Source: a virus. From it: DNA of 64,000 nucleotides. Shown here piece by piece: positions 20,950-60,151 of this stretch. Where the stretch lies: UHGV virus genome UHGV-1366976; one strand, given 5' to 3'. Below the pieces are notes generated by a model that had not been told where the DNA came from, made no database searches, and saw only the letters and a program-made list of their open reading frames with translations. Every line of letters starts with the position of its first letter. The first letter of the stretch is position 1. A program made the translations under genes and the position numbers.

Positions 20950-21087
20950 TAATTTTTTCATCTTAACATTTTTCTAACATTCACACTTATCCTCTCAGAT
21001 TATGTTGTAGTAGTTAAGCTTTAGGAGGTTCCAGCAATTTAGAAGGTTATTCAATATACATTACTGTATAAGGCTGCCTATTTGTTA

Positions 21088-25005: not shown

Positions 25006-26409
25006 TTATTTTACTAATTCAATTTGTTTGTAATCATATGAATAAGCAAAATCATCTAGAATTTCAATGAATCCACATCTGTCTCCATAAGAGATTTGAT
25101 GTTGTACTACCATTTTCATTCTATGGGAAATATAAGATAATAAATAGTCTACAATTGTTCTATCCTTAAAACAACTAGAAATAATAGAATTAAGATCTAC
25201 TTTAAGTTTATCACTAGAAGCACTCTTAATAATTTCATCCTGATGATTTAGCAAATACCACACTAGGGAATTACAAATATATACCCAGGGAATTACTTTA
25301 TACTTATTTAATGTTGGAGTATGAATTCTAAATTCAATAGTCTTTGCTCCACCAAAAATAAGATTTACAAGATTTACCCATTTGTATCTAGCATGTACTT
25401 CCCATTTTCTATTACCATCTCTATCATGTGGATGATTTGCTCCAAATCCTTCAAATACAAAACCTGGAGTTTCAGCATACATATCAAACAATTGTTTAAA
25501 TTGTTTTTCTACACTAAGAGTATTATCACAAGCATTTTTAGCTAATTTTTTACAATAATCTTTATCTCCCTTCTTAAAAGAGGAAGATGCTGTCATCATT
25601 GAGGGAAACATGGCTAAAATTTGAGGCTCTAATGCTTTAAAATAATGATATGCTGCAACAACAAGTGTTTTATCTACAGTAGGAACTCCTACATGAACAT
25701 GAAGAGAACATTGATGGTCAATATCACAATAATTTTGCAACATTTCACAAGTCTCATGTAATACACCAATACCTTCTTTGCCTTTAAGAGGAATTGTAGC
25801 ATATTCATTTCCTGTTATTGAACCATCTTTTAAAGGAATTAATCCTAGTCTAGCACATTCTGATTGTGGCACTGAACCAGAACATGTTTCAAATTCTATT
25901 CCAAAAGTTAAATTTGGAAGGTTAAACATACCAATTCTATTGGGAGTGTAATTGTCAGAATGGTATTTTTTAAAATCCTCTAATAAAAATTTAGCTCCAT
26001 AGTTATTTGGGAAATCATACATCCAAGAATATTTTCTATTTCTAATAGGTGTTTTATAGTTATTTCCCATACTAAGTTTCCCATTATACTTATAGATAAG
26101 ATTTTTAGGATTAATATACATATCTGGATCAACTTCCAAGAATCCAACTTCTTTTAAATATTTCTTGTCAAATACAGTAATTACAATTCCAAGAATATTT
26201 ACAGAAGCATTTTTAGCATAATTTCTACTAAAGAAACCATAATAATATTGTTGAGATAAAGGATCAAAATTTACAACTCCATAAATAAGAGAAGAAACAG
26301 AACTTCTCATCTCTTTTTTCTCAAAATCATAATATCTACTTCTACTAGGAGCAGTTTGAGTTAAGAAATAATGAACTCCTTCTTCTACATTAAAATCATT
26401 CTTAAACAT
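25006..26409 (-). CDS. Glutamine-synthetase-like amidoligase (COOH-NH2 ligase), copy 1
   Basis: Amidoligase motifs GIEFETCSG (GxExE), SLHVHVGV (HxH) and TIEFRIHT (ExR), 467 aa. Confidence 0.5.
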   Translation of the reverse strand: MFKNDFNVEEGVHYFLTQTAPSRSRYYDFEKKEMRSSVSSLIYGVVNFDPLSQQYYYGFFSRNYAKNASVNILGIVITVFDKKYLKEVGFLEVDPDMYINPKNLIYKYNGKLSMGNNYKTPIRNRKYSWMYDFPNNYGAKFLLEDFKKYHSDNYTPNRIGMFNLPNLTFGIEFETCSGSVPQSECARLGLIPLKDGSITGNEYATIPLKGKEGIGVLHETCEMLQNYCDIDHQCSLHVHVGVPTVDKTLVVAAYHYFKALEPQILAMFPSMMTASSSFKKGDKDYCKKLAKNACDNTLSVEKQFKQLFDMYAETPGFVFEGFGANHPHDRDGNRKWEVHARYKWVNLVNLIFGGAKTIEFRIHTPTLNKYKVIPWVYICNSLVWYLLNHQDEIIKSASSDKLKVDLNSIISSCFKDRTIVDYLLSYISHRMKMVVQHQISYGDRCGFIEILDDFAYSYDYKQIELVK

Positions 26410-26412
26410 AAA

Positions 26413-28218
26413 TTAATCCAGTGTTTTTAAAGTTTTAGTCAAATCTTCAATAATTTCATTAGCTTCTTTAATCAATTCAGAAAGTCCAGTAATGTCTTGA
26501 CATTCTTGTACAAACATTAAAAATTGTTGTTTACATAATTCTACTTGTGCAAAACTTTCACTTTTAAGAGCTAATAATAAATCCTCATAATTATTCTTTA
26601 CATCTTCTTTAAACTCTTCCCAACCTAAGTCACCAAAATAATATTTAATGCATTCAGAAAGTTGGGTAAAATCTGTTCTTAACCATTCAGGACAGAGAAT
26701 ATTTGTTCTGTCAGATTTAAAATTACTATAGTAGTGAGACATACCTACTCTCTTACCTATATCATTAAAATCTGTTTTAGTAGAAAAAGTTTTATAGAAT
26801 TCACTAATTCCTTTAGTAATTAAATAGCTTCTTAAAGTAAATAAAGGACTAAAATAGCCTGTTGGAAATATATTCCCTTTTACTTTAAAATCATATCTAG
26901 TAAAGGCATTCTCTCCTAAATACAAGAAATTCTCAGCAATAAAAGGTGTAATATAATCCACTTTTCCTGTTAAAGTATAAATTTGTTGAGCCATTTTATA
27001 ACAATGAGGATGGATTAGTATACCATCTATAAAGTACACTTTCCAATCTGAAGTATATTTACTTGTAGTTATATATCCTAAAGGAGAACAATTATACACT
27101 CCATTCAATAACTGTTTCTTTTGATAATATCTACCTCTAGCAAATAGAATATTATCACTATTATAATAGCCTTCAGTAGATTCTTTATCTAGATCACTTT
27201 CAAGTTTGGTTTTAGAAGGAACTATTAAAACTGGAATCTTTTTATCTTCCTTCTTAGTATTAAATTTGTTTCCTTCTTTATACCTTTCAGATTCTCTCTC
27301 CCAATATCTCTGATAAGCAACATCATCTTCATAATCATCACCATAACTTCCATAGTTATAATAATCATAACCATAAGCATTGTGATTATGACCAGAATAA
27401 GTGGATACATAAGGTTTCTTTTGAAGACATTCACTCCTATCATAGACAGTTTTACTTACAAGTTTTCCATTTTCAAATTTATATAAAGTATTAGGTTCTA
27501 CAGGAGCTATTCTTTCTTGATCATCTTTAGAATTATCTATAAATGATAAAGATTCTTCTAAAGAAGAAAAATACCAATAATCCTCATCTATATTATACAA
27601 GAACAAAGGTCTTTCTTCATCTGTAGTTGTTGAAGTACTATAAGCTTTAGATTTTCCTCTAAAAATATATACTACATCAACTCCTCTAGAAATCTTTTCT
27701 CTAATATCATAGATAACTATAGCTGCTGCACCAATATATTCAGTTAGGATTTTAAATCCCTCTTTTTTAATTAGTTTAGCTAGAATTTTAGAATCAGTTT
27801 CACCTTTAACTTCTTTGATACCATATTTTTCAGCTAATTCTTCATGATTCTGGAGTGTACCATTATGAATCATTACAAAATCTTCTGTTAAAACATTTTC
27901 TTGTTTTTTTTGTTCTTCTGTTAAAGACTCATTTAATAATACTATGGGTTGAGCATTAGCTTCTGTATGAGCACCTACAGTAGCTTTTCTACAATGTCCT
28001 AAAATAACATTGTTTTCTTTAAATACAGAATCATTTTTATAAGATAAAACTAAATCTCTATAAAGTTTTTTCTTTTCTACTCCATAAAGAACTCTTCCTA
28101 GTAAATACCTTCCACAAGAATCACCACCTCTAGAATCATTAAAAAGTCCTAATACATTAAACTTATCCCAACTAAATCTTTTATTATCTTTTCCAATATA
28201 ACCAAAAAGTCCACACAT
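26413..28218 (-). CDS. Class II (Ntn) glutamine amidotransferase fused to an unknown C-terminal domain
   Basis: N-terminal MCGLFGY (Cys2 nucleophile), GHCRKATVG, MIHNGTL (HNG) and GETDSK. Tyr/Gly/Asp-rich linker GHNHNAYGYDYYNYGSYGDDYEDD. C-terminal ~300 aa has no recognisable motif. Confidence 0.65.
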   Translation of the reverse strand: MCGLFGYIGKDNKRFSWDKFNVLGLFNDSRGGDSCGRYLLGRVLYGVEKKKLYRDLVLSYKNDSVFKENNVILGHCRKATVGAHTEANAQPIVLLNESLTEEQKKQENVLTEDFVMIHNGTLQNHEELAEKYGIKEVKGETDSKILAKLIKKEGFKILTEYIGAAAIVIYDIREKISRGVDVVYIFRGKSKAYSTSTTTDEERPLFLYNIDEDYWYFSSLEESLSFIDNSKDDQERIAPVEPNTLYKFENGKLVSKTVYDRSECLQKKPYVSTYSGHNHNAYGYDYYNYGSYGDDYEDDVAYQRYWERESERYKEGNKFNTKKEDKKIPVLIVPSKTKLESDLDKESTEGYYNSDNILFARGRYYQKKQLLNGVYNCSPLGYITTSKYTSDWKVYFIDGILIHPHCYKMAQQIYTLTGKVDYITPFIAENFLYLGENAFTRYDFKVKGNIFPTGYFSPLFTLRSYLITKGISEFYKTFSTKTDFNDIGKRVGMSHYYSNFKSDRTNILCPEWLRTDFTQLSECIKYYFGDLGWEEFKEDVKNNYEDLLLALKSESFAQVELCKQQFLMFVQECQDITGLSELIKEANEIIEDLTKTLKTLD

Positions 28219-28235
28219 AATATTATTTTAAATAA

Positions 28236-29054
28236 TTAAACCATAGGAATATTAAATGTCTCTACAAGCTGTTTAGCTACTTCTACATTTCCTCCCATAG
28301 CTGCTAAGACTTCATCTTTTAATACATCTATATCAATAGAATCTTCATCGTCATTTAAATATTTATTTACTTCTTCAATAGCTTTAAGAGTATTATTAAA
28401 AGCCCATCTTAGTAGATTATCATCTTTTAAGAAATATCCACTTAATGTTCTGGCTTCTACTCCATATCTACAATGTCTAAAAGACCCAGCTGATCCATAA
28501 ACTCCTCTTCTCTCATTCTTAGGCTCTATTAATACAGAAGGAACTCCAACAAATAGATCAAAGAATTTTACTATAATAATATTTAATGGAGCTACAGGAT
28601 CTTTATATCCTATATGAATGTGCATACCCACAGTCCTCAATGTTCCTGGAAATTCTGCTGGTTTAGGATTAACTTCTCCATCTTTCCAAGCATTATAATC
28701 TTCAGAACATCCAATTTCTTTTGCTTGAGGATGTTGTAAATACTCTTCTTTTAAATGTCCATCAGGTAGATGCAATAATGTTAGATTAGGATCAATTTTA
28801 TTTAGATACTCTTGAATATATCCCTTCATAAAGTTCATATGCTCTACAAATTCATCCACATTATTAGTAGGAGGAATATTAAATTCTGCTAGAATATTAT
28901 CTGTTTGTAAAGCATATCCTTTATCTCCAATAATATAAGGAGCATCTTTAGTACCAGGAATAAAAGGAATTGCAGAGACAATCTCTGCTTTTTCCTTGTT
29001 ATAAATAAATAATTCTGGATCAGATCCAATTAAGATGTTATCTACTCTTTTCAT
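28236..29054 (-). CDS. Glutamine-synthetase-like amidoligase, copy 2
   Basis: IGSDPELF (ExE-type), VGMHIHIGY (HxH) and YGVEARTLSGY (ExR). Confidence 0.45.
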   Translation of the reverse strand: MKRVDNILIGSDPELFIYNKEKAEIVSAIPFIPGTKDAPYIIGDKGYALQTDNILAEFNIPPTNNVDEFVEHMNFMKGYIQEYLNKIDPNLTLLHLPDGHLKEEYLQHPQAKEIGCSEDYNAWKDGEVNPKPAEFPGTLRTVGMHIHIGYKDPVAPLNIIIVKFFDLFVGVPSVLIEPKNERRGVYGSAGSFRHCRYGVEARTLSGYFLKDDNLLRWAFNNTLKAIEEVNKYLNDDEDSIDIDVLKDEVLAAMGGNVEVAKQLVETFNIPMV

Positions 29055-29056
29055 AG

Positions 29057-29785
29057 TTATTTTCTTATAATATTACCATTTCTTAATAATACAGTTACAA
29101 AATTTCCATTTGCTAATACCTGAGCAACTCTAGCTTGAGATTGAGGGACTTCAAAATATTCTCCAGTATCTGGATTCTTTTTCATGAATTTAATAACTTC
29201 ATATAAAGTTCCTCTTTCCAAGGTCATTGTTCCTGTATTATGAGAAAAATAGACTTTTTCTTCTGCTATTTTTTTGTCTTCTTCAGTTTCAACTTCATCA
29301 ACTTCCCATTCTCTAGAAAAAGTTTCTTCATATTCTTCTCTATCAACATATCTCAGATAAGCTTTAAATTCTTCAATTTCAGCATTATCTATAAAAGATA
29401 GTTGAGTATCTCCAAGAGATAATTCTACTTTTCTTTCTCCTGTATCTATTACAATACTTTTTATAGATAATGGATCTAATACACCATTTACAAATTCAAA
29501 TGTCTGTCTAGTTTTAAGATCTTCCATAATAATAGAAGATATTTCAAACTTTTTCTTATATAAAGGATGTTTAGGATTAGTAATTTCTACTGTACAAATT
29601 TTAAAATTTTCTTTTGGAAGAGCTCCTAATACACCATTTACTCTAACAACATTAGATTCTTCAAAAGGTGCTGGTACTAATCTATTGAAGATATCTGCTT
29701 CTTGAGAATATTTATAGCTACTCAAAGCAGAAACTAACATACCTGCTGACAAAGGAGTAACATCTTTAATAACTTGTAAAATCAT
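29057..29785 (-). CDS. Hypothetical protein within amidoligase cluster
   Basis: 242-aa ORF with an acidic stretch EVDEVETEEDKK. No motif recognised. Confidence 0.4.
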   Translation of the reverse strand: MILQVIKDVTPLSAGMLVSALSSYKYSQEADIFNRLVPAPFEESNVVRVNGVLGALPKENFKICTVEITNPKHPLYKKKFEISSIIMEDLKTRQTFEFVNGVLDPLSIKSIVIDTGERKVELSLGDTQLSFIDNAEIEEFKAYLRYVDREEYEETFSREWEVDEVETEEDKKIAEEKVYFSHNTGTMTLERGTLYEVIKFMKKNPDTGEYFEVPQSQARVAQVLANGNFVTVLLRNGNIIRK

Positions 29786-29786
29786 A

Positions 29787-30356
29787 TTAAATTAATCTTT
29801 TTTTTTGAATAAGTGAATTTTGATTTACTGCATTTGTAATAAGAACTTTTGTTGCTTTTTCATATGTTGTATAACATAAGAATTTTTTAAGATCTGTTCT
29901 CCAAGGAACTTCTACTTCTCTATAAGCACAAACAAAGTCATACAAATAATTAGGATCAGGATTCCAAAGATCTTTTTTTAATCTTTTAGTATCTACAGCC
30001 ACTAAATCTGGATAATCTGATTCTATTTGAGATTGATATGTTAATAAAGATTTATCTATATTAGTAACACTTCTAAATGTACCATTATCCATATAATAAC
30101 CTAAACTTATTGTATCTTCTAGTCCACAATTTTCTTCATTATAAACTTTTAAGTTTAGATATTCTACTTTATGTCCATCATAATATAAAGGAGAACATAA
30201 ATCTTTATCTAAAAACATTTTAGTTCTAGAATTATTTGTATAGACCTGGATAAAATCCAGGCCATTATAAATATCTGAGCTTGTTAAACTGTTAAAGATA
30301 GTAAGATCTGTTCTTCTTATTACTGGATTTTTATAAGAAACAATTCTACTAGCCAT
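29787..30356 (-). CDS. Hypothetical protein within amidoligase cluster
   Basis: 189-aa ORF, no motif recognised. Confidence 0.4.
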   Translation of the reverse strand: MASRIVSYKNPVIRRTDLTIFNSLTSSDIYNGLDFIQVYTNNSRTKMFLDKDLCSPLYYDGHKVEYLNLKVYNEENCGLEDTISLGYYMDNGTFRSVTNIDKSLLTYQSQIESDYPDLVAVDTKRLKKDLWNPDPNYLYDFVCAYREVEVPWRTDLKKFLCYTTYEKATKVLITNAVNQNSLIQKKRLI

Positions 30357-31350
30357 TCTGTCTAAAATTAATTTCTTTCCAAGAAAATGATTTAGATTTC
30401 ATATATTCTAGAGAAGACCAGTGTTCTCTCTTATTATCTTCACCTTCTTCTAATTCATAAGCTGCAATCCAATCAAAATATTTAGAATATTTAGCTGCTG
30501 CATATTCAGAATTAGATAGTTCAGGAGCAGTATTTACTTCTAATACATATGGAGAACCATCTTCTGTCACTACAACATCAACAGCTCCAAAATCTAGACC
30601 TAAAGCATTAAGAGCTCCTACACAAGCTCTAGCTAATCTAAGATCATTCTTAGTAGGTTCAGCACCTTCTCTAAGATTTCCAAATTTTCCATAATCATCC
30701 CATCCAATAACTGTCCATGCTTCTGCATTTTGAGCATGATTCCATACTATTTGATTAGGATCTTCTGGTCTAGGTTTCTCTAGCAAAGCAAGAATTTTAC
30801 TATGAGCTACATGAGCTCTAAATTCTTTAACTTTAGGAACAAAATTACTGTAATAGTGATCTTTCTTGTGAACATTATAGTGAGCTAAAAATTCTTCCCA
30901 TGTATTAAAGGTATAAAAGTTTTTACCTTGATGATGAAGTAAAGGTCTTCCAATAATAGGAAATACAACTTTAGATCTATCTGTTTGAGGAGTAATATTT
31001 AATGGACAAGGAATCTCATTCTCAGCAAATAGTTTTCTAGCTAGACTCTTTACTGAAGCATTCTTTACTGCAGAAGAATTATTATAAACAACATTTGCCA
31101 AATCATCTACTTGAATTCTATTTCCCCATTTAATCAAATAAGATTTATCTAATAAAGAATCTATATTCTTAGTTTTAGTCATGGTAATATTACCATTCTC
31201 ATCTTTAGAATATACTTCAAAGATATATCCTTTAGATTTTTTTAATTCTTTTCTAATAACTAGATAAGCATTTGGATTTTTCACTTCTGCAAATACTTTT
31301 TTCATTGAAGGTCTCCCACCTAATCCACACAAAATTACTACTTTTTCCAT
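30349..31350 (-). CDS. ATP-grasp ligase (RimK/glutathione-synthetase-like)
   Basis: FPIIGRPLLHHQGKNF (substrate/ATP loop), GAVDVVVTEDGSPYVLEVNTAPELS (ATP-grasp LEVNxxP motif). Confidence 0.6.
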   Translation of the reverse strand: MEKVVILCGLGGRPSMKKVFAEVKNPNAYLVIRKELKKSKGYIFEVYSKDENGNITMTKTKNIDSLLDKSYLIKWGNRIQVDDLANVVYNNSSAVKNASVKSLARKLFAENEIPCPLNITPQTDRSKVVFPIIGRPLLHHQGKNFYTFNTWEEFLAHYNVHKKDHYYSNFVPKVKEFRAHVAHSKILALLEKPRPEDPNQIVWNHAQNAEAWTVIGWDDYGKFGNLREGAEPTKNDLRLARACVGALNALGLDFGAVDVVVTEDGSPYVLEVNTAPELSNSEYAAAKYSKYFDWIAAYELEEGEDNKREHWSSLEYMKSKSFSWKEINFRQNG

Positions 31351-31352
31351 AT

Positions 31353-32006
31353 TTATTTATTTAATAAGTTATTGTCAATAAGTTGAATTAATCTTTTATG
31401 AAATTCTCCAATTTTCATCATTTCAGGATGCCCTTGGATTCCTAAACATTTTACAGGATTATTATATTTATCCTTAAAAAATAATACTACTTCAGGCTCT
31501 ACTGGAGGGATTTGTGAATATTGTTCATCTTCTCCATTAATATACTTGGTAGATCTTCTTTCAGTGCTCCATGCTTCAATACTATAATTTTCTTTTGGTA
31601 ATTCAAAAGGATATACCATTTGATGATGTAAAGAAGTAGTAACACATTGAAATCCATCTTTAAAAGTAATATTATGAGAGCATCCTGCATGATTAGATAC
31701 ATCTTGAATAACTCTACCACCACATAGACCACAAATTAATTGTAGTCCTCTACATATTCCTATCATTGGAATATTTAATTCTACTGCTTTTTTAAAGACT
31801 TCAATTTCAACTTTATCTCTATGTTCATTTCCCCAATATGTTCTAGAAATTTTTTCTCCATATATTGAAGGACTAATATCTGCTCCACCAGTAAACATTA
31901 TTAAATCAGCTTCTAGAATATCTCTAGTGATAACAGCTTCTTTATAGAAATCTAGTAACCAGTAAGCATATCCTACTCCATAATCTCCAGCTATATAAAT
32001 ATTCAT
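31353..32006 (-). CDS. Class I glutamine amidotransferase-like / peptidase C26 (gamma-glutamyl hydrolase-like)
   Basis: Catalytic-Cys motif GICRGLQL and His/Glu motif IQGHPEMM. FTGGADISP glycine-rich turn. Confidence 0.6.
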   Translation of the reverse strand: MNIYIAGDYGVGYAYWLLDFYKEAVITRDILEADLIMFTGGADISPSIYGEKISRTYWGNEHRDKVEIEVFKKAVELNIPMIGICRGLQLICGLCGGRVIQDVSNHAGCSHNITFKDGFQCVTTSLHHQMVYPFELPKENYSIEAWSTERRSTKYINGEDEQYSQIPPVEPEVVLFFKDKYNNPVKCLGIQGHPEMMKIGEFHKRLIQLIDNNLLNK

Positions 32007-52726: not shown

Positions 52727-53302
52727 ATGAAATTATTTAAACTAGAAAATTGGAAAGTGGAAATAGCTCCAGAAGCATTAACTATAGTAGATTTTAAGGA
52801 GCTAGTTAAGAGAGATAAATCTAGAACAAAAGAGAATGCTATAAATGAATTGTCATTTATTTTTTTCTTTTGTGATAGTAGATCAGATTATCTTTATATA
52901 GATGATCCTACAGAAAGAATGGAAGCCATTAAAACAGATTTAAATTTACCTAAAAAATGGAAGCCAGATGAACTTGTAACTAAAGCTATGAACACTTATC
53001 TTAAATTGAGTGTGACTATTTTTTCTACAGCATTAGATGATGTTAGGGTCGCTATTAGAAAGATTACTCAGAATTTAAGAGAAGCTGATTATAAGAATAT
53101 GGATGCTAATGAAATTAATAAATCTACAAGTTCTATTAAACAAGTAGGACCTTTATTAAAAGAGTTTAAAGAACTAGAAAGAGAAGTATTAGCTGAAATT
53201 GAAGAGGACTCTATTACATCTAAAGATAGAACTATTCTAGACAGTGGGTTTAAAGCATTTAATGATATAGAAACTTTAAAAGGAATACAAGATGGTAACT
53301 AA
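52727..53302 (+). CDS. Hypothetical protein immediately upstream of terminase (candidate small terminase subunit by position)
   Basis: The six-frame track starts at a TTG (52718) inside the terminator T-run. The first ATG (52727, MKLFKLENWK...) is the more plausible start. Position upstream of TerL is the only functional evidence. Confidence 0.35.
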   Translation: MKLFKLENWKVEIAPEALTIVDFKELVKRDKSRTKENAINELSFIFFFCDSRSDYLYIDDPTERMEAIKTDLNLPKKWKPDELVTKAMNTYLKLSVTIFSTALDDVRVAIRKITQNLREADYKNMDANEINKSTSSIKQVGPLLKEFKELEREVLAEIEEDSITSKDRTILDSGFKAFNDIETLKGIQDGN

Positions 53303-56300
53303 TGCTGTAAATACAGAATTAACTCCTGAGTTTCTAGAAACATTAGCTAAAGAAGAGAGAACAGAACTATTAGACTATTTAAATAATTATCCATTTATAA
53401 GATGGATGATATCTCCAGATAGACCTTATGCTAAAGATCTAGAAAGAGATTCAGAAGGTAAAATTATAGTTAATGTGGTTAAACCTCACATATTAGAAAA
53501 TATGGATTATTTTAGAAAACCTGCATTAGCTTTTAAAAAACATGGTAAATATACTAATTTAAGACCTAATGGTAATCCAAATAGTCCATATATGAAATGG
53601 TTAAGAAAAGAAGTTCTTAAATGTTGGTATGGATGTAAGAGACCATCTGATGGTGAATGGATTACTGGTTATCATTATTTTTATTTAAATTATTCTCCAA
53701 TAGAAAGAGCTACAGCTAATATTAAAGATACTAATGCTGTAAATAGGGTTGTTGATTTTCCTGATATCTATGATGGAGATTATATATTTTTTCATTATAT
53801 AAATCAAGCTAGATATGGAGGAATGTATAATGAATATAAAGGAGGTCAACATTCAGCTTTAATAGCAGCTAGAGGAAAAGGAAAAATGCTTCCTAACTCT
53901 ACTATTGTATATACTCCAAATGGATATAAAGTGTGGAAGGATATACACCCAGGAGATTATTTATATGGAGATAATGGTAAGCCAACAAAAGTCTTGGAAG
54001 AATTTAATCATAAATCAAAGCCAATATATAAATTAACTTTAAAAGATGGAAGGACAGCATATGCTGGTTTAGAACATCTTTGGACTATAAAGTATGGAAA
54101 TAAGTTAATAACAGTAGATACACAGTGGATTATAGAAAATGGTTTTGGTAAAAGAACAATTAAAGGAAAATGTCATAAACCTATTGAATGTAAAGCTTTT
54201 TTGCCTATAAATAAAGCAATAGAAATTCCTTATAAAGAAGTTTCTATAGATCCTTATCTATTAGGTTTAATTTTGGGGGATGGATGTTTAGGATATGCTA
54301 ATAGTAAAGGAGTATTATTTTCTTCTACAGTTAAAGATCAGAAAACTTATGAGAAATTATTAAATACTAAAATTAGAGAATATAAAAACAGTAATTGTTT
54401 TATAGAAAGTGCAAATATTAAAAATAAATTGATTGAATTAGGTTTATATAAAACAAAATCTGATAATAAATTTATTCCAGATATCTATAAATATAATTCT
54501 AAAGAAGTTAGATTAGAAATCTTAAAAGGATTAATGGATACTGATGGTTCTGCTTTTAGTAGTGGTATAGAATATATCTCTAAATCTAAACAATTAGCAG
54601 AAGATGTACTTTGGATTGGAAGATCTTTAGGAATAAGAGGAACACTTAATTCTAAGTTTGTAAAATATAAAGATGAAATTAAAGAATATTTTAGGGTTAG
54701 ATTTATAACTACTGAAACTATCTTTAAACTTCCTAGAAAAATAGAAAAAATAAAACAAAGAAATTCTAATTATTTAAAGAATCAAGAAAACTATGTAGCA
54801 ATTACTTCTATAGAATATTCTTATAATGAAGATGCTAAATGTGTAATAGTGGACAATGATTCTCATTTATTTTTAATGAATGACTTTATTGTTACTCATA
54901 ATTCATTTAAAGTAGCATCTATGGCTACTAGAAATTTTATCTTAGGAGAAAATAAAGAAGTTTGTGAAAAAGTAAAATCTGTTGTTGTAGCTAGTAATAC
55001 AGAATATTTAAGAAAAGATGGTACTTTAAATAAGATATTAGCTATGACAGATTTCTTGGCTTTAAACACACAATATCCATCTAGTAGATTAAAATCTTCT
55101 AATCAAGAAATGCATTGGATTATGGGATTTAAAGATACTAGAAATAAAGATGTAGCTTTAGGAACTAGAAATGAAATTATAGGATTATCACTAAATAATG
55201 ATTCTGATAAAGCCAGAGGTAAAAGATCTCATTTAATGATATGGGAAGAATTTGGTATGTTTCCTGGTTTTATAGATGCATGGAACACTAGTAGACCTAA
55301 TGTAGAAGAAGGTGGATATTCTTTTGGACAAGCAATTGCTTTAGGAACAGGAGGCTGTGTTTGTGCAGGTTCTAAAATATATACTAGCTCTGGAGATATA
55401 AAAAATATTGAAGATCTTAAAAAAGAAGATGGAATTATAGGATATGATACAAAATTAAAAAAATATTCTAAAGAAACTGTTTCTTATATACAACCTTTAC
55501 AAAAAAAGGAATGTGTAGAGATAACTACTTCTTTTAATAAAAAATTAAGATGTAGTATAGATCATCCTATTTTTGTTAAAAATAAGTTTATAGAAGCTGG
55601 AAATCTAAAAATTGGAGACAGAATTAAAATAGTTGAAGAAATTCCATTATTTGGAACATACAGTCCTAAATATCCAAGAGTTATAGGTTGGGTAATAGGA
55701 GATGGTTCTTATGGGAATAATCAATCTACTAGACTGTCTAATTGTGAGCCTGAAATTCTAGATTTTATAAAAAATAATTTTGAATATAACATTCAAAGAG
55801 AGTACATTACAAAATTAGGAAAAACATTTCAAGAAATTGCAATTAAAGGATTTAATAAATATCTAAGAGAAGAAGGAATTTATGGTCAAACTAAATTAAA
55901 TAAAACTTTTCCAAATAAGATTGGTCAATATTCAAAAGAAGCTTTGTCTGAACTTATTGGAGGTTTTTTTGATACAGATGGATATGTAAATTTAAGAAAA
56001 GCAGACAATAAAGATTTGGCAGAAATATCAATTTCTTCTGCTTCTAAAGAATTACTATCTTTTTTAGGGTTATTGCTTATAAAATTTGGAATACATGGTA
56101 GAATTAGGGAAAGACTGCCTAGAAAAAATAATCCTAAAGACAAACATTCTTGGTTTGAATATACTATATCTGACAGTATTAGTTTATTAAATTTTTGTCA
56201 CAATATAAAACTTTATCCTAAAATAAAACAGGAAAGATTAAATAAAATTAAAGAATTATTTTCCACAAAAAAACCTACTTCTAAAAGAGAAGAAAAAATC

Positions 56301-57623
56301 ATTGATATAAAAAATATAGGTTTACAAACTATTTATAATTTAACTGCAGATAATACTCATACTTATATAGCTAATGGTATAGTAACTCATAATACTGAAG
56401 GATCAGATTTTAGTGGTGCTTTAGAAATGATTTATAATCCCTTAGGATATAATGTTTATGGAGTTCCCAATATGTTTGATAAAGGAACATCTGGAGGTTC
56501 TAAATCTATTCTCTTTATAGGAGAATATATGAATAGAAAAGGATGTTATGATAAAAATGGAAATTCAGATGTTATTAAAGCTGTTTTAGAAGAAGTCAAA
56601 GAAAGAGTATTTATCAAATATAATTCTACAGATCCTTCTACTATTGCACAAAGAATAGCTGAACATCCTATGTCTATTCAAGAAGCTGTAATGAGAAGAG
56701 ATGGTACATTATTTCCTGTAGCTGATTTAACAGACCATCTTAATTATATAGAATCAAATAAAATAGAATGGCATAGAGGTCATTTAGTTGGAGAACTATA
56801 TCAAGATCCTGAAGGAAATATTTCTTTTAGACCAACAGATGATGATCCTATTAGAGATTTTCCCTTAAAAGATAATAGACATAAAGGAGCATTAGAAATA
56901 TATGAATTGCCTAAAGAAGTTAATGGAAAGGTGCCTAGTTATAGGTATGTTGGTGGTATTGACCCTATTGATGATGATCATAGTACAACTGTATCTCTTC
57001 CCAGTATATTTATCCTTGACATGTTCACTGATAGGATTGTAGCTGAATATACAGGTAGACCTGATTTTGCAGATGATTTTTATGAAATATGTAGAAGATT
57101 AGCTATTTTCTATAATGCTTCATTAAATTATGAGAATGATAAAAAAGGTTTATTTACATATTTTTCAAATCATCATTGCACTCATTTACTATGTGATACT
57201 CCAGATATTTTAAGAGATGTAGAATTGGTAAAATCTTCTATGTATGGTAATAAATCTAAAGGTACTAATTCAGGAAAACAAGTAAATGCTTATGCTAGAA
57301 GACTTATTAGAGATTGGCTATTAATGCCTGTAAAACAAACTAAAGTTGAATTAGATGAACATGGTGATGAGGTAGAGAAAATTACCACTGTTAAAAATCT
57401 ACAAAGATTAAGAGGAATAGCTTTAATAAAAGAACTTATAATGTGGAATCCTGATATAAATGCAGATAGAGTTTCTGCTTTAGGTATGTTGATGATTATT
57501 AGAGAGAATAATATGAAATATCTTCCAGGAGAAGGAACATCTATTGGTAAAAAAACTAGAAAGAATTATCTAGGTAATGATCCTTTCTTTACTAGTAATT
57601 TTGCTAATAATTCTTTTTGGTAA
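53292..57623 (+). CDS. terL: Terminase large subunit precursor containing two inteins
   Basis: Extein motifs: P-loop ARGKGK(S), Walker B HLMIWEEFG, nuclease-domain VGGIDPIDDDHS. Two in-frame LAGLIDADG-containing insertions end in HN|S and HN|T. Confidence 0.75.
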   Translation: MVTNAVNTELTPEFLETLAKEERTELLDYLNNYPFIRWMISPDRPYAKDLERDSEGKIIVNVVKPHILENMDYFRKPALAFKKHGKYTNLRPNGNPNSPYMKWLRKEVLKCWYGCKRPSDGEWITGYHYFYLNYSPIERATANIKDTNAVNRVVDFPDIYDGDYIFFHYINQARYGGMYNEYKGGQHSALIAARGKGKMLPNSTIVYTPNGYKVWKDIHPGDYLYGDNGKPTKVLEEFNHKSKPIYKLTLKDGRTAYAGLEHLWTIKYGNKLITVDTQWIIENGFGKRTIKGKCHKPIECKAFLPINKAIEIPYKEVSIDPYLLGLILGDGCLGYANSKGVLFSSTVKDQKTYEKLLNTKIREYKNSNCFIESANIKNKLIELGLYKTKSDNKFIPDIYKYNSKEVRLEILKGLMDTDGSAFSSGIEYISKSKQLAEDVLWIGRSLGIRGTLNSKFVKYKDEIKEYFRVRFITTETIFKLPRKIEKIKQRNSNYLKNQENYVAITSIEYSYNEDAKCVIVDNDSHLFLMNDFIVTHNSFKVASMATRNFILGENKEVCEKVKSVVVASNTEYLRKDGTLNKILAMTDFLALNTQYPSSRLKSSNQEMHWIMGFKDTRNKDVALGTRNEIIGLSLNNDSDKARGKRSHLMIWEEFGMFPGFIDAWNTSRPNVEEGGYSFGQAIALGTGGCVCAGSKIYTSSGDIKNIEDLKKEDGIIGYDTKLKKYSKETVSYIQPLQKKECVEITTSFNKKLRCSIDHPIFVKNKFIEAGNLKIGDRIKIVEEIPLFGTYSPKYPRVIGWVIGDGSYGNNQSTRLSNCEPEILDFIKNNFEYNIQREYITKLGKTFQEIAIKGFNKYLREEGIYGQTKLNKTFPNKIGQYSKEALSELIGGFFDTDGYVNLRKADNKDLAEISISSASKELLSFLGLLLIKFGIHGRIRERLPRKNNPKDKHSWFEYTISDSISLLNFCHNIKLYPKIKQERLNKIKELFSTKKPTSKREEKIIDIKNIGLQTIYNLTADNTHTYIANGIVTHNTEGSDFSGALEMIYNPLGYNVYGVPNMFDKGTSGGSKSILFIGEYMNRKGCYDKNGNSDVIKAVLEEVKERVFIKYNSTDPSTIAQRIAEHPMSIQEAVMRRDGTLFPVADLTDHLNYIESNKIEWHRGHLVGELYQDPEGNISFRPTDDDPIRDFPLKDNRHKGALEIYELPKEVNGKVPSYRYVGGIDPIDDDHSTTVSLPSIFILDMFTDRIVAEYTGRPDFADDFYEICRRLAIFYNASLNYENDKKGLFTYFSNHHCTHLLCDTPDILRDVELVKSSMYGNKSKGTNSGKQVNAYARRLIRDWLLMPVKQTKVELDEHGDEVEKITTVKNLQRLRGIALIKELIMWNPDINADRVSALGMLMIIRENNMKYLPGEGTSIGKKTRKNYLGNDPFFTSNFANNSFW
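53898..54902 (+). mobile_element. Intein 1 in TerL (LAGLIDADG homing-endonuclease intein; N-terminal boundary +/- 4 codons)
   Basis: Inserted in the P-loop (ARGKGKMLPN|S...). Block B-like GLEHLW. LAGLIDADG motifs LLGLILGDGCLG and ILKGLMDTDGSA. C-terminal IVTHN|SFKV (His-Asn + Ser). Confidence 0.6.
55356..56393 (+). mobile_element. Intein 2 in TerL (346 aa, LAGLIDADG homing-endonuclease intein)
   Basis: N-terminal block A CVCAGSKI (C-V-x-x-G-S-x-I), block B SIDHP. LAGLIDADG motifs VIGWVIGDGSYG and LIGGFFDTDGYV. C-terminal IVTHN|TEGS. Confidence 0.7.
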
Positions 57624-57715: not shown

Positions 57716-60151
57716 ATGGAATTAACTATTAGTGGATTTCCTAACCAGAAATTACCTTTTTCTAAGAAAGGTAAAGAATGGAGGAAAAGAGTTGTTGATT
57801 GGGCTGATAAAAGATCCTACTTCTTTGACTCTGTTGTTAGAAAAGCTTTTATTAATAAAAAAATCAATTATGATTTAATTAATGGAAAGCTTCATCTAGA
57901 TGATTTAAAGTTAATTCTAAATCCTGACAATATCAAAGCCTCTTATATTCCTAGTAATATTCAACACTATCCTATTATGAATAGTAAATTGAATGTATTA
58001 GCTGGAGAAGAAAAAGAAAGAAGATATGAATTCAAAGTAATAATTACTAATCCTGATGCTATTTCAGAACTTGAAATTAAAAAAAGACAAGAGCTTTCAG
58101 AAGCTTTATCTTCCCTCCTAGAAGAAGCATCACAAGATGAATCTATCTTGGATAAAGAATTAAAATCTCTTTCAGATTCTTTTAGATATGATTGGTCAGA
58201 TATAAGAGAGATAAGAGCAAATCAATTATTAAATCATTATTATAAAGAATTAAAACTAGATGTTAAGTTTAATGATGGTTTTATGGATGCAATGATTGTT
58301 GGTGAAGAATTATACCAATGTGATATTGTATCAGGAGAACCTATAGTAGAAAGACTTAATCCTAGAAAAGTTCATGTATTTAAAAATGGATATTCTAATA
58401 AAATAGAAGATGCAGATTTAATAATTTTAGATGACTTTTGGGCTCCTGGAAAAATATTAGATTATTATTATGATGATCTTTCTGATAATGATGTTAAAAA
58501 GTTAGAAGAATATTCTCCTTTTGCTGATTCATCTGAAGGATTAAATCTATATGATGATACTAAACTATTTGTTCCAAGATTCTCTTATTATGATGATAAT
58601 AATATTGATTTAGATTTTGCTTTTCAATCTGGAACAACTACACCTTCTTCTAACTATTATGATAATTTAGGTAATATTAGAGTATTAAGAATATTCTGGA
58701 AAAGTAAAAGGCTTGTTTTAAAAGTTAAGAAATATGACTTAGAAACAGGAGAGCCTTACTATGATTATTATCCTGAAGATTATAAAGTAAATGAAGCTCT
58801 TGGTGAAGAAGCTGAAAAACAATGGATTAATGAAGCATGGGAAGGAACTAAAATAGGTAGAGATATTTATATTAATATCAGACCTAGAAAGATCCAATAC
58901 AATAGAATGTCTAATCCATCCAGATGCCATTTTGGTATTATTGGTTCTGTCTATAATCTTAATGAATCTAGAGTCTATTCATTAGTAGATATGATGAAAC
59001 CATTTCAATACATGTATGATGCAGTACATGATAGATTAAATAAAGCTATTGCTAGAAACATGGGTAAGATTGTTAAATTAGATCTAGCTCTTATTCCTGA
59101 TGATTGGGAGATAGACAAATGGATGCATTTTGCTTATGTTAATGGTATTGCTGTAGTAGACTCTTTTAAAGAAGGTAATGTAGGTGCTGCTACTGGTAAA
59201 TTAGCAGGCTCTCTTAATAATAATAGTTCTGGAGTTATGAATGCTGAAACAGGTAATTATATACAACAGCATATAGCTTTATTAGAATTTATTAAACAAG
59301 AGATGTCTAAGATAGTAGGTATTACAGATCAAAGAGAAGGAGCAGTTCAAGCTTCAGAAACTGTTGGTGGTGTACAAACATCTGTTAGACAAAGTACTTA
59401 TATTACAGAAAGACTATTCTTAATTCATGATGATGTTAAGACAAGAGTACTAGAAGCTTTATTAGAAACTGCTAAAATAGCAATGAGAGGTTCTAGTAAA
59501 AAATATAATTTTATTTTAGATGACTTTTCTAGAGAACTTGTAACTATTAATGGAGATGAGTTTGCTGAGTGTGATTATGGTTTAGTAGTTGATAATTCTA
59601 TGAATACTTTAGAATTAACACAGAAATTAGATACATTAGCACAAGCAGCTTTACAAAATCAAGCTTTATCTTTCTCATCTATTATTAAGATTTATAATAG
59701 TAAATCTTTAGCTCAAGTACAAAGAACTATTGAAATAGATGAAGCAGATATTCAAGAAAGACAACAACAGCAACAACAAGCTGAACAAGAATTAGCTCAA
59801 TCTCAATTAGAACAACAAGCTCAAATAGAACAGGCTAAATTAAATCTTGAAAAATATAAAATTGATCAAGATAATCAAACTAAAATTCAAGTGGCTACTA
59901 TATCAGCTTTAGGATATTCTGAAGATAAAGATGTTAATGATAATAATATTCCTGATGTAGTAGAAATGAATAAATTAGCATTAGAAGAGATGAATGCTAT
60001 GGAAACTAACTCTTTAAAAAGAGAAGAACTTAGAATTAAAGAGAAGGAAGTTGAAATTAAAGCTCAGACTGAAAAATACAAAGCAGATAAGAGCTTAGAA
60101 GTTGCTAGAGAAAATAAAAATAAATATGATACTAAAACCAAGAAGACATGA
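57716..60151 (+). CDS. Portal protein (by synteny and size)
   Basis: 811-aa ORF directly after TerL. Gln-rich coiled-coil C-terminus (QERQQQQQQAEQELAQSQLEQQAQIEQ). No motif-level proof possible by eye. Confidence 0.5.
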   Translation: MELTISGFPNQKLPFSKKGKEWRKRVVDWADKRSYFFDSVVRKAFINKKINYDLINGKLHLDDLKLILNPDNIKASYIPSNIQHYPIMNSKLNVLAGEEKERRYEFKVIITNPDAISELEIKKRQELSEALSSLLEEASQDESILDKELKSLSDSFRYDWSDIREIRANQLLNHYYKELKLDVKFNDGFMDAMIVGEELYQCDIVSGEPIVERLNPRKVHVFKNGYSNKIEDADLIILDDFWAPGKILDYYYDDLSDNDVKKLEEYSPFADSSEGLNLYDDTKLFVPRFSYYDDNNIDLDFAFQSGTTTPSSNYYDNLGNIRVLRIFWKSKRLVLKVKKYDLETGEPYYDYYPEDYKVNEALGEEAEKQWINEAWEGTKIGRDIYINIRPRKIQYNRMSNPSRCHFGIIGSVYNLNESRVYSLVDMMKPFQYMYDAVHDRLNKAIARNMGKIVKLDLALIPDDWEIDKWMHFAYVNGIAVVDSFKEGNVGAATGKLAGSLNNNSSGVMNAETGNYIQQHIALLEFIKQEMSKIVGITDQREGAVQASETVGGVQTSVRQSTYITERLFLIHDDVKTRVLEALLETAKIAMRGSSKKYNFILDDFSRELVTINGDEFAECDYGLVVDNSMNTLELTQKLDTLAQAALQNQALSFSSIIKIYNSKSLAQVQRTIEIDEADIQERQQQQQQAEQELAQSQLEQQAQIEQAKLNLEKYKIDQDNQTKIQVATISALGYSEDKDVNDNNIPDVVEMNKLALEEMNAMETNSLKREELRIKEKEVEIKAQTEKYKADKSLEVARENKNKYDTKTKKT

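Follow-up and report, generated by a model that had tools for sequence, protein, structure and literature searches.

Class 3 inteins, by the criteria of Tori et al. 2010, present a first residue other than Cys, Ser or Thr, a WCT triplet and a Ser or Thr at position +1. Their prototype is the DnaB intein of mycobacteriophage Bethlehem, and solved representatives are M. smegmatis DnaBi1 (6bs8) and M. chimaera DnaB1 (6rix and 6riy). Class 3 inteins inserted in the P-loop of the large terminase (TerL) have already been published (Tori 2010; Kelley 2016). The TerL inteins of Kelley et al. 2016 belong to class 1 and class 3 and carry LAGLIDADG endonucleases; both their splicing and their cleavage of intein-free alleles were demonstrated. 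A crAss-like TerL with two inteins has likewise been described (Yutin et al. 2021). We analysed a 64,000-nucleotide stretch of the virus genome UHGV-1366976, hereafter the window, and confirmed that its TerL gene holds two in-frame LAGLIDADG inteins.

The TerL gene and its precursor

The TerL precursor is encoded by an open reading frame at positions 53292..57623 of the + strand (coordinates including the stop codon; all features of the gene given below are on this strand), corresponding to 1443 aa and 165.5 kDa. A frame of 1443 codons in a genome of 26.8% GC, together with its matches to intein-free alleles and to other TerLs, is far beyond chance. The portal gene (57716..60151, + strand) adjoins it downstream. 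Three extein segments were delimited. Segment 1 (53292..53885, aa 1-198) ends with the Walker A residues IAARGKGK (53862-53885; ARGKGK at residues 193-198), segment 2 (54903..55355, aa 538-688) contains the Walker B motif MIWEEFG (55236-55256; residues 649-655) and ends with ALGTGG (residues 683-688), and segment 3 (56394..57620, aa 1035-1443) contains the nuclease motif GIDPIDDD (56955-56978; residues 1222-1229). The 1443-aa frame and all the motifs cited in a preliminary description of this DNA were found.

In silico deletion of both inteins gave a protein of 758 aa and 86.7 kDa. This spliced protein aligned with the phrog_6681 TerL profile in one stretch (E 6.7e-99, residues 85-740), whereas the precursor aligned in three. 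In the same way, it aligned over residues 3-752 with the TerL of IAS virus in a single alignment (50% identity), and in one piece with the TerL of cr108_1. A PDB sequence search with the spliced TerL gave no significant match. The TerL and portal proteins are closest (50-55%) to those of Steigviridae, and the genetic code is standard. The AARGKGK-S, MIWEEFG and GIDPIDDD motifs, a full-length profile match and an adjoining portal gene identify the gene as a large terminase, from a crAss-like phage (Crassvirales, Steigviridae-like).

Boundaries of the two inteins

The frame is interrupted by two inserts of 339 and 346 aa, at the two sites where inteins of about 340 aa had been proposed. The terminase of about 760 aa expected upon their removal agrees with the 758 aa obtained here, which is close to natural intein-free alleles: 32 intein-free TerLs of 758 aa, found on metagenomic phage contigs of about 100 kb, differ from the in silico spliced product at only 1-2 of 758 positions. 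Because the intein-free alleles match the spliced product within 1-2 residues, the intein boundaries are fixed by sequence. At the DNA level, intein 1 (53886..54902) is an exact insertion of 1017 nt, with flanks of 30+30 nt identical to a conspecific contig whose P-loop site is empty, and intein 2 (55356..56393) is an exact insertion of 1038 nt at a site (site c) whose empty DNA is near-identical to the flanks. The flanks of both inteins are contiguous in intein-free homologues.

A Hint fold with blocks A, B, F and G was recovered for both inserts by PDB sequence matches to intein splicing domains and by AlphaFold models, whose matches include mini-inteins, and for intein 2 also by Pfam. Both end with His-Asn followed by a nucleophile at +1 (THN^S538 and THN^T1035, where ^ marks the junction), and all catalytic residues are intact in both. 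The LAGLIDADG pairs, GLEHLW, SIDHP, CVCAGSKI and the terminal His-Asn with Ser or Thr that had been reported are all present, at the residues given below.

Intein 1 at the P-loop

Intein 1 (aa 199-537, 339 aa, 39.1 kDa) splits the Walker A motif (GKGK^S) between the invariant Lys and Ser, and exhibits a class 3 signature with an embedded LAGLIDADG endonuclease. Its first residue, which had been left ambiguous between Ser203 and a position nearer Met199, is settled as Met199, directly after the Walker A Lys and aligned to residue 1 of solved inteins. Block B (54075..54083, within GLEHLW, residues 259-264) provides His262-Leu-Trp264, that is the B:10 His and the B:12 Trp of the WCT triplet. Cys517 at F:4 (54840..54842) is predicted to act as the catalytic nucleophile of the class 3 route; its counterpart in 6bs8, the class 3 DnaB intein of M. 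smegmatis, is the Cys of RCVEVDN. Block G (54894..54905; residues 535-538) comprises Thr535 (G:5), His536 and Asn537, followed at +1 by Ser538, the Walker A Ser. The residue at B:7 is Gly, not Ser or Thr. The two LAGLIDADG motifs are YLLGLILGDG (54255..54284; LGLILGDG at residues 324-331), the Asp of which is invariant across the family, and EILKGLMDTDG (54516..54548; LKGLMDTDG at residues 411-419).

The best PDB sequence matches of intein 1 are the class 3 DnaB inteins 6bs8, 6rix and 6riy, together with the WCT-engineered gp41-1 (6riz). Its AlphaFold model (pLDDT 92.7) matches TliVMA (3e-18), PI-SceI and PI-PfuI, and the predicted splicing domain matches 6bs8 (TM 0.82 over target). Judged by these residues, the missing N-terminal nucleophile is not an anomaly and fits the class 3 signature.

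The family of intein 1 comprises 117 relatives, mostly in P-loop NTPases (PhoH, TerL, SNF2, UvrD-like and DnaB), with an insertion context of G(78)-K(73)^. The B:10 His and the B:12 Trp are each conserved in 96 of 103 relatives, the F:4 Cys in 85 of 97, the G:5 Thr in 82 of 83 and the terminal His-Asn in 83/83; the +1 residue is Thr (60), Ser (19) or Cys (4). Residue 1 is Ala in 41 relatives, followed by Gln (11), Ser (9), Glu (7), Gly (7), Met (4) and Cys (2). Met is therefore a minority state (4/91) and the closest sister alleles have Ala; a reduced splicing efficiency arising from Met1 is conceivable. The Met1 intein was found in 88 distinct TerL sequences, and relatives include endonuclease-decayed variants of 239 aa at this site (site a).

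Intein 2 at the GTGG^T motif

Intein 2 (aa 689-1034, 346 aa, 39.7 kDa) is inserted at GTGG^TEGS. This motif, about 33 residues after Walker B, is probably the ATPase coupling motif, as indicated by its spacing and conservation. The intein starts with Cys689 (CVCAGSKI, residues 689-696), presents Ser755-Ile-Asp-His758 in block B (55554..55565; SIDHP, residues 755-759), and ends in block G (56385..56396; residues 1032-1035) with Thr-His1033-Asn1034 and Thr1035 at +1. Its embedded LAGLIDADG endonuclease contains VIGWVIGDGS (55680..55709; VIGDGS at residues 801-806) and ELIGGFFDTDG (55950..55982; GGFFDTDG at residues 890-897). Pfam matches were obtained to Intein_splicing (5e-18) and, in two stretches, to LAGLIDADG_3 (6.8e-24), and the AlphaFold model (pLDDT 95.5) matches TliVMA (2e-17) and PI-PfuI. 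From its signature residues, intein 2 is assigned as a canonical class 1 intein.

The Asp that is usual, though not obligatory, at block F:4 of class 1 inteins is replaced by Asn1016. As this Asn is kept in 149/152 relatives, it reads as a family-specific variant and not as a sign of decay. At E<=1e-30, the family has 221 cluster representatives. In the 148 best relatives, the first residue is always Cys (148/148), the B:7 Ser and the B:10 His are conserved, the intein ends with Thr-His-Asn in 127/136 and a Thr follows at +1 in 123/140. Five of the 8 host proteins sampled match the phrog_6681 TerL.

Endonuclease domains, selection and site occupancy

The catalytic Asp is present in both LAGLIDADG motifs of each intein (GLILGDG and GLMDTDG in intein 1, WVIGDGS and FFDTDG in intein 2) and is invariant in both family alignments. 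The predicted endonuclease folds match I-DmoI, I-OnuI and the endonuclease domain of PI-SceI. The comparison of the window with one 85%-identical relative, in which dS is near saturation (0.7-1.1) and the ratios are accordingly rough, gave a dN/dS of 0.38 for intein 1 (0.48 in the endonuclease region and 0.17 in the C-terminal splicing region), 0.16 for intein 2 and 0.04-0.12 for the exteins. Both splicing domains are under purifying selection, and the rather high ratio of the intein 1 endonuclease (0.48) leaves room for a partial decay of homing activity.

Among near-identical phages, TerL holds 0, 1, 2, 3 or 4 inteins distributed over five sites, with ten occupancy states among TerLs having at least 97% identical exteins. 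The a+c allele of the window was found on several contigs of about 100 kb from independent sources. Three sites are empty in the window: site b (55224..55229, R645^S646, GKR^SHLMIWEEFG), where P0079 and P0033 have a Pro1 intein of 340 aa; site c' (55344..55349, G685^T686), which precedes intein 2 by three residues and is filled in P0080 and Dulem virus 41; and site d (57252..57257, K1321^S1322, YGNK^SKGT), which many near-identical phages have filled with a 326-aa intein of class 3 signature. The view that double-intein terminases are uncommon is thus only partly right for this lineage, with its 0-4 inteins over five sites and a two-intein crAss-like TerL already published. This occupancy pattern points to ongoing homing. 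Moreover, a site-c-empty allele differs from the window at 20 extein nucleotides, 14 of which fall between -222 and +48 nt relative to intein 2. Such a co-conversion-like cluster would give indirect support to homing, as would the dN/dS below 1 of the endonuclease regions.

In crAss-like TerLs, inteins of class 3 signature are found at three sites: the P-loop (GKGK^S), GNK^SKG in the C-terminal half, and GKR^S just upstream of Walker B. They all group in one clade in a neighbour-joining tree (bootstrap 86/100), in which those outside the P-loop are nested among the P-loop ones. This nesting suggests ectopic transposition to P-loop-like junctions. That the TerL of this crAss-like species is a live arena of intein homing, within which the class 3 lineage has spread, is a tentative proposal to which we give a little less than even odds; if true, it would offer a natural system in which to measure how inteins are gained and lost, and how their endonucleases decay, in the viruses of the human gut.

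The genome had also been called heavily parasitised, which was not borne out in the window. Apart from the inteins, tblastn searches with intein queries and Pfam searches of 29 other ORFs found a single mobile-element gene, a free-standing LAGLIDADG_2 ORF (20090..20884), and none of the Rfam intron models reached threshold over the whole window.

Proposed model for splicing and homing

We consider, with a probability of roughly 0.88, that a crAss-like TerL precursor undergoes class 3 and class 1 intein splicing and that its inteins are maintained by endonuclease-driven homing. We infer splicing, the thioester branch and endonuclease cleavage from the sequence, the predicted folds and genome abundance. 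The 165.5-kDa precursor would be translated and would then excise both inteins post-translationally, yielding an active TerL of 86.7 kDa. In intein 1, Cys517, activated by His262, Trp264 and Thr535, would attack the K198-M199 bond to give a thioester branch, from which the N-extein would be handed to the hydroxyl of Ser538; the cyclisation of Asn537 would free the intein, and an O-to-N shift would restore GKGK-S. Intein 2 would follow the class 1 route, with an N-S acyl shift at Cys689, transesterification to Thr1035 and cyclisation of Asn1034. At co-infection, the LAGLIDADG endonuclease of each intein would cut intein-free TerL alleles and repair would copy the intein in, which would explain near-identical phages differing only in their occupied TerL sites.

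In DAC15 and DAC17, two lytic phages that have been cultured, the same P-loop site holds a related intein (38% identical, Ala1/W/C/T); therefore this intein must presumably splice in Bacteroides. A weaker possibility, drawn by analogy, is that a Cys-dependent class 3 intein in the P-loop may make DNA packaging redox-sensitive. The class 3 intein of mycobacterial DnaB is reportedly sensitive to redox conditions.

Alternative explanations

The nucleophilic residue nearest to the first junction is Ser203, and a minority of intein 1 relatives start with Ser (9) or Cys (2), so that a class 1 intein starting at Ser203 and leaving MLPN in the mature P-loop could be envisaged. We give this start hardly any credence and ruled it out: intein-free alleles of the same species have AARGKGK^SFKVAS, lacking MLPN and with identical DNA flanks, the GK[ST] motif of Walker A would be disrupted if MLPN stayed in place, and Met199 matches residue 1 of solved inteins, a register also held by the sister alleles AISYS, AIPYS and AHPYS. 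Alternatively, Ser538 might attack the K198-M199 bond directly, as in a class 2-like route in which the W, C and T of intein 1 are only structural; class 2 (KlbA) inteins also have no N-terminal nucleophile (Tori 2010). This route is unlikely. Class 2 inteins have no WCT triplet and use Cys at +1, and in the MP-Be DnaB intein the F:4 Cys is absolutely required (Tori 2010), while in intein 1 all three residues are present, they are near-invariant in its family, and the nearest solved relatives are class 3.

It is very unlikely, in our view, that one or both inserts no longer splice, being decayed inteins or plain domain insertions in a TerL that is dead or tolerates them. Met1 is an unusual first residue, the splicing of the TerL inserts is deduced, and endonuclease-decayed 239-aa variants of site a do occur in relatives; nevertheless, the catalytic residues are intact in both inteins and both splicing domains are under purifying selection. 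The inserts, moreover, interrupt Walker A and another conserved motif of the ATPase, so that normal ATP binding would be impossible before splicing, and the recurrence of the a+c allele on independent contigs, the 88 TerLs with the Met1 intein and the homologous intein of cultured DAC15 all stand against decay. Finally, group I introns with LAGLIDADG ORFs are numerous in crAss-like phages (Yutin et al. 2021), and the inserts might have been group I or II introns with in-frame endonuclease ORFs, removed from the RNA. The chance of this is close to nil, given a reading frame unbroken through both inserts, Hint N- and C-terminal blocks with a predicted Hint-plus-LAGLIDADG fold in both, Rfam intron models that stay below threshold throughout the window, and insert ends that coincide exactly with Cys/Met...His-Asn^Ser/Thr. 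Splicing of both inserts at the protein level, by the class 3 and class 1 routes, remains the reading that we retain.

Comparison with known systems

The double-intein TerL leaves unchanged the current knowledge of how inteins and terminases work. It adds a well-delimited intein of class 3 signature, with Met1 and an intact endonuclease, from a very abundant group of gut phages, far from the actinobacterial systems in which class 3 inteins were characterised. The natural alleles of one gene with 0, 1, 2, 3 and 4 inteins are ready substrates and controls for work on splicing and homing. Public labels of the window protein are 'hypothetical protein', 'intein/homing endonuclease' and 'LAGLIDADG family homing endonuclease', and RefSeq labels the DAC15 homologue 'DarB-like antirestriction'. 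The protein should be named TerL with two inteins, and its spliced 758-aa sequence should be used in TerL phylogenies of Crassvirales.

Intein 1 resembles the class 3 DnaB inteins in its non-nucleophilic residue 1, its B:12 Trp, F:4 Cys, G:5 Thr, His-Asn and Ser at +1, and in its insertion after the GK of the P-loop of a helicase-like ATPase; over the splicing domain, class 3 inteins are its best PDB matches both in sequence and in predicted fold. It starts with Met, whereas the Bethlehem DnaB prototype starts with Pro and Ala is commonest among intein 1 relatives. It has Gly at B:7. It keeps a full LAGLIDADG endonuclease, whereas the mycobacterial DnaB inteins are mini-inteins without such an endonuclease. 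Its host is a Crassvirales TerL, where class 3 chemistry is predicted, while the class 3 DnaB inteins are from actinobacteriophages and actinobacteria. The "classic" P-loop intein TerL1-a of mycobacteriophages (Kelley et al. 2016, mBio) lies, like intein 1, between the Walker A Lys and Ser/Thr. The TerLs of that study come from other terminase families (terminase_1 and terminase_6-like), with all their inteins in the ATPase domain, in contrast with the crAss lineage, which has site d in the C-terminal half (empty in the window) and up to four inteins per TerL.

Both window inteins match PI-SceI, PI-PfuI and TliVMA over the Hint and endonuclease domains of their predicted models (E 1e-13 to 1e-18), but with only 12-20% identity; the hosts of these inteins are V-ATPase and RNR, and intein 1 differs from them in splicing class. 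Closer relatives of intein 1 at the P-loop (38-43% identical, Ala1/W/C/T) are found in DAC15, DAC17 and the uncultured phage cr111_1, that of cr111_1 being inserted two residues upstream (RGK^SKS), and in Dulem virus 41 the position of the intein 2 relative is shifted upstream by three residues (G^TGG, site c'). Unlike the window TerL, none of these four has two inteins. The same layout is found in the TerL of the Delta-group cMAG OBYQ01000140, which also comprises three in-frame exteins and two Hint-endonuclease inteins (Yutin et al. 2021, Nat Commun). The likeness lies in this extein/intein layout, OBYQ01000140 being a TAG-recoded member of the Delta group while the window uses the standard code and its TerL and portal are closest to Steigviridae. 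The double-intein TerL illustrates cleanly a phenomenon that was already known.

TerL gene and genome context

We located in a single unbroken ORF of 1443 codons (53292..57623, + strand), read in the standard code without in-frame stops, all the motifs that the preliminary description had named for the large terminase (TerL). In the precursor, Walker A (AARGKGK) occupies residues 192-198, Walker B (MIWEEFG) residues 649-655 and the nuclease motif GIDPIDDD residues 1222-1229. Insert 1 contains GLEHLW (259-264) and the LAGLIDADG-type motifs LGLILGDG (324-331) and LKGLMDTDG (411-419), and ends with THN followed by S (535-538). Insert 2 starts where ALGTGG is followed by CVCAGSKI (683-696), contains SIDHP (755-759), VIGDGS (801-806) and GGFFDTDG (890-897), and ends with THN followed by T (1032-1035). 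Pfam identified LAGLIDADG_3 in two stretches of the precursor (6.8e-24), and the proposed check against intein models was positive, Intein_splicing matching residues 703-1034 (5.3e-18). In PHROGs, the precursor matched phrog_6681, the crAss-type TerL family, through three stretches lying apart from one another.

TerL is followed by a portal gene (57716..60151), and both products share 50-55% identity with their counterparts in Steigviridae crAss-like phages (IAS virus, DAC15, cr108_1, crAss001). The identical 1443-aa protein is present in NCBI, JGI and ENA on contigs of up to 99,391 bp, labelled 'hypothetical protein'. As a near-identity DNA search of the phage collection gave a sole match of 60 nt, to cr10_1, the genome is absent from that collection, and the context was taken from protein-level searches and metagenome contigs. 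Scans of the whole 64-kb window for tRNA genes and for Rfam families at the gathering threshold were both negative; with these results and the standard code of TerL, the window differs from the recoded, intron-rich Delta/Zeta crAss-like groups. Its GC content is 26.8%, typical Bacteroides phages lying far above this value, and a 98% identical TerL of 1769 aa (P0004) is listed by NCBI under 'uncultured Fusobacterium sp.'. This crAss-like lineage may thus infect a host other than Bacteroides; alternatively, the label of P0004 may have arisen as an artefact of binning.

Both inserts are inteins with exact boundaries

Removal of M199-N537 (intein 1) and C689-N1034 (intein 2) yielded a 758-aa protein, in agreement with the terminase of about 760 aa expected from excision. 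Residues 3-752 of this spliced TerL align unbroken to the intein-free TerL of IAS virus, and phrog_6681 is matched in one stretch (85-740, E 6.7e-99). Pfam gave only a sub-threshold match to Terminase_6N (E 0.004), so that PHROGs were required for the TerL call. A search with the spliced sequence returned 32 distinct natural TerLs of 758 aa on 95-100-kb contigs, with 1-2 differences each. At the DNA level, the conspecific contig L006, whose P-loop site is empty, reads GCTTTAATAGCAGCTAGAGGAAAAGGAAAA directly followed by TCATTTAAAGTAGCATCTATGGCTACTAGA, the same as the window flanks of intein 1, which is therefore an exact 1017-nt insertion (53886-54902). By comparison with L007, a contig with an empty second site, the insertion that forms intein 2 measures exactly 1038 nt (55356-56393), with two synonymous changes in the two codons adjoining the junction.

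The start of intein 1 had been left between Ser203 and Met199. The DNA and protein of intein-free alleles place it at Met199, right behind the Walker A lysine, and the Ser203 start was rejected; the serine of Walker A is Ser538, at position +1. Within 53874..53888, the ATG of Met199 sits right after the purine-rich P-loop codons GGAAAAGGAAAA, where translation of an intein-first product might conceivably begin; sister alleles carry GCx (Ala) in place of the ATG.

Two other readings of the inserts were considered, as introns and as segments that do not splice, and both were rejected. The Rfam scan of the whole window contained no recognisable intron RNA. A related intein (38% identical, Ala1/W/C/T) is carried at the same P-loop site by DAC15 and DAC17, lytic phages of Bacteroides that are in culture, which implies that the lineage of this intein splices in vivo. 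That both inserts are inteins with these boundaries has, in our estimate, a probability of about 0.97; the initial observation is confirmed and its interpretation supported, with refinements.

Intein 1 carries a class 3 signature

Class 1 splicing opens with an N-S or N-O acyl shift, of which methionine is incapable. The best solved-structure matches of intein 1 by sequence are the class 3 DnaB inteins 6bs8 (M. smegmatis) and 6rix/6riy (M. chimaera), together with 6riz, which is gp41-1 with an engineered class 3 WCT motif (Beyer et al. 2020). In these alignments Met199 stands opposite intein residue 1, and Cys517 in AKCVIVDNDSHLFL opposite the catalytic Cys of RCVEVDNPEHLYL. Class 3 inteins are defined by a non-nucleophilic residue 1, Trp B:12, Cys F:4 and Thr G:5, with Ser/Thr at +1, and mostly reside in P-loops of helicase-like ATPases, phage terminases among them (Tori et al. 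2010). Intein 1 has every one of these sequence features, with M1, H262 (B:10), W264 (B:12), C517 (F:4), T535 (G:5), H536-N537 and S538.

A database search gave 117 relatives, in many cases hosted by PhoH-like, terminase, SNF2, UvrD-like and DnaB-like proteins; only proteins shorter than about 600 aa were returned, and full-length multi-intein TerLs are under-sampled in the residue counts and in the tree. In the profile alignment of these relatives, positions -2 and -1 are G (78) and K (73), and residue 1 is A (41), Q (11), S (9), E (7), G (7), M (4), L (3), V (3), F (3), C (2) or P (1). His B:10 and Trp B:12 are each found in 96/103, Cys F:4 in 85/97, Thr G:5 in 82/83 and the C-terminal His-Asn in 83/83, followed at +1 by T (60), S (19) or C (4). 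The AlphaFold model of intein 1, built from 42 family sequences (pLDDT 92.7, pTM 0.91), matches the bifunctional LAGLIDADG inteins TliVMA (3e-18), PI-SceI (2e-16) and PI-PfuI (4e-13), and its splicing domain superposes on 6bs8 with a TM of 0.82 over the target. Intein 1 is very likely to use class 3 chemistry.

Intein 2 belongs to class 1

The second insert is of class 1, with Cys689 at position 1, S-I-D-H in block B, IYNLTADNTHTYIANG in block F and IVTHN in block G, followed by Thr1035. An exhaustive search gave 3825 cluster representatives at E<=1e-3, of which 221 reach E<=1e-30. In the 148 best relatives, Cys1 never varies (148/148), Ser stands at B:7 and His at B:10, 127/136 end in Thr-His-Asn and 123/140 have Thr at +1; position F:4 of the family is Asn in 149/152, versus the usual Asp. 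Of eight host proteins sampled, five match the phrog_6681 TerL, and the insertion contexts are mostly G^TGG or, as in the window, GTGG^TEG. The AlphaFold model (pLDDT 95.5) matches TliVMA (2e-17), PI-PfuI (8e-17) and PI-SceI.

The G-T-[GA]-G motif at this site is kept in every crAss-like TerL aligned, about 33 residues past the Walker B glutamates. A sequence search of the PDB with the spliced TerL gave no significant match, so that GTGG^T could not be mapped on a solved terminase, and we infer from analogy with T4 gp17 that GTGG is probably the ATPase coupling motif.

Five insertion sites and their occupancy

Mapping the listed TerL homologues onto the spliced sequence revealed five insertion sites in this lineage. 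Site a (GKGK^S, the P-loop), occupied in the window by intein 1, holds a 339-aa intein or a 239-aa variant lacking LAGLIDADG motifs. Site b (GKR^SHLMIWEEFG; 340 aa; Pro1, Phe B:12, Cys F:4, Thr G:5) and site c' (G^TGG; 362 aa; Cys1) are empty in the window, and site c (GTGG^TEGS; 346 aa; Cys1) holds intein 2. Site d (YGNK^SKGT; 326 aa; Ala1/W/C/T), empty in the window at 57252..57257, lies about 95 residues past GIDPIDDD, within the C-terminal half of the protein, and is occupied in the related TerLs P0001, P0034 and L008 and in many near-identical phages.

Among the listed matches with exteins at least 97% identical, ten occupancy states were found, counted as distinct sequences: none (32), a (51), d (10), c (1), a+c as in the window (8), a+d (45), b+c (1), c+d (1), a+c+d (10) and a(mini)+d (1). 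Relatives at 85-93% identity carry up to four inteins. Two of them have 85-89% extein identity: P0033 (2005 aa), with all four (a-mini, b, c, d), and P0080 (1701 aa), with tandem class 1 inteins at c' and c and only TGG between them. The 239-aa variant at site a (P0033, P0080, P0081, P0309) has lost both LAGLIDADG motifs and retains the H-x-W, KCVVVD and THN blocks; it appears to reflect endonuclease decay towards a mini-intein.

Possible homing and intragenic spread

Between the window and an allele with an empty site c, 14 of the 20 extein nucleotide differences fall within -222 to +48 nt of intein 2 (binomial test about 2e-9, for an interval picked post hoc), a clustering that looks like co-conversion during homing. 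In a neighbour-joining tree, the crAss-like TerL inteins with a class 3 signature (sites a, b and d, DAC15 and cr111_1) form one clade (bootstrap 86/100) that leaves out 58 relatives from other P-loop proteins. Within the same tree, sites d and b each pair with a different P-loop intein (87 and 71, respectively). This grouping suggests an intragenic spread of these inteins to junctions similar to the P-loop, on modest evidence, given the neighbour-joining method and the under-sampling of long multi-intein proteins.

Proposed splicing, endonucleases and selection

With Walker A as well as the GTGG motif interrupted, the 165.5-kDa precursor cannot be a working ATPase. Splicing of the two inteins, each independent of the other, would release the 86.7-kDa TerL and free inteins of 39.1 and 39.7 kDa, through single-spliced intermediates of 126 kDa. 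For intein 1, the class 3 route would begin with the attack of Cys517 on the K198-M199 bond, after which the N-extein would be moved to the Ser538 hydroxyl; cyclisation of Asn537 and an O-to-N shift would then finish ligation. For intein 2, the class 1 route through Cys689 and Thr1035 is proposed.

The LAGLIDADG motifs of both inteins retain the two catalytic Asp, which are invariant in the family alignments. Relative to L008, an 85%-identical relative, dN/dS is 0.38 for the whole of intein 1 (0.30 in the N-terminal splicing region, 0.48 in the endonuclease region, 0.17 in the C-terminal splicing region), 0.16 for intein 2 and 0.04-0.12 for the exteins, ratios that are rough because dS is near saturation. 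In the comparison with L006, the rows for intein 1 and the middle extein were dropped, MAFFT having paired intein 1 with the paralogous site-b intein.

Other genes in the window

The genome had been called heavily parasitised. The window does not support this, only one further mobile-element gene having been found in it, a free-standing LAGLIDADG_2 endonuclease ORF (20090..20884, - strand, 264 aa, Pfam 8.9e-12) between the genes for a family A DNA polymerase (17166..19193) and a ribonucleotide reductase (21078..23066). This ORF lacks Hint blocks, and its surroundings showed no Rfam intron. A tblastn search of the window with all five intein types gave no further inteins and only a weak LAGLIDADG match (20387-20668).

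A gene run at about 25006..32006 (- strand) encodes amidoligase_2, GATase_6/7 glutamine amidotransferase and phiEco32-like COOH-NH2 ligase domains, together with weak ATP-grasp R2K and Peptidase_C26/GATase domains, and looks like a putative peptide- or amide-ligation cassette. Two very large ORFs, 3..8870 (+, 2955 aa) and 8918..13057 (+, 1379 aa), the latter with no Pfam match, presumably encode giant crAss-type virion or RNA-polymerase proteins; tblastn found no intein-like segment in either.

Comparison with known inteins

In the TerLs of mycobacteriophages, seven sites hold inteins of class 1 and class 3, among them the 'classic' Lys^Thr P-loop site; representatives spliced and two cut intein-free DNA experimentally (Kelley et al. 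2016). All TerL inteins of mycobacteriophages lie in the ATPase domain, whereas site d lies in the C-terminal half of the protein. According to Yutin et al. 2021, TerL of the crAss-like Delta group is typically intein-bearing and one TerL has two Hint-endonuclease inteins, a finding restated in later reviews.

The TerL of Bacteroides phage DAC15 (L002; NC_055832.1 9429..12761, 1110 aa), labelled 'DarB-like antirestriction' in RefSeq, has a P-loop intein with a class 3 signature (GAGK^AHPYSEY...VTHN^SFS). The P-loop intein in the TerL of the uncultured phage cr111_1 (L003) apparently lies two residues upstream of the window site (RGK^SKS versus GKGK^S); the spliced P-loop would carry Ser for the second Gly, like Dulem virus 41 (RGASKS).

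Class 3 inteins in P-loops, phage terminases included, and a crAss-like TerL with two inteins were thus known before. The present analysis adds the assignment of a Met1 intein to class 3, the multi-site polymorphism, and exact boundaries that natural alleles free of inteins bear out.
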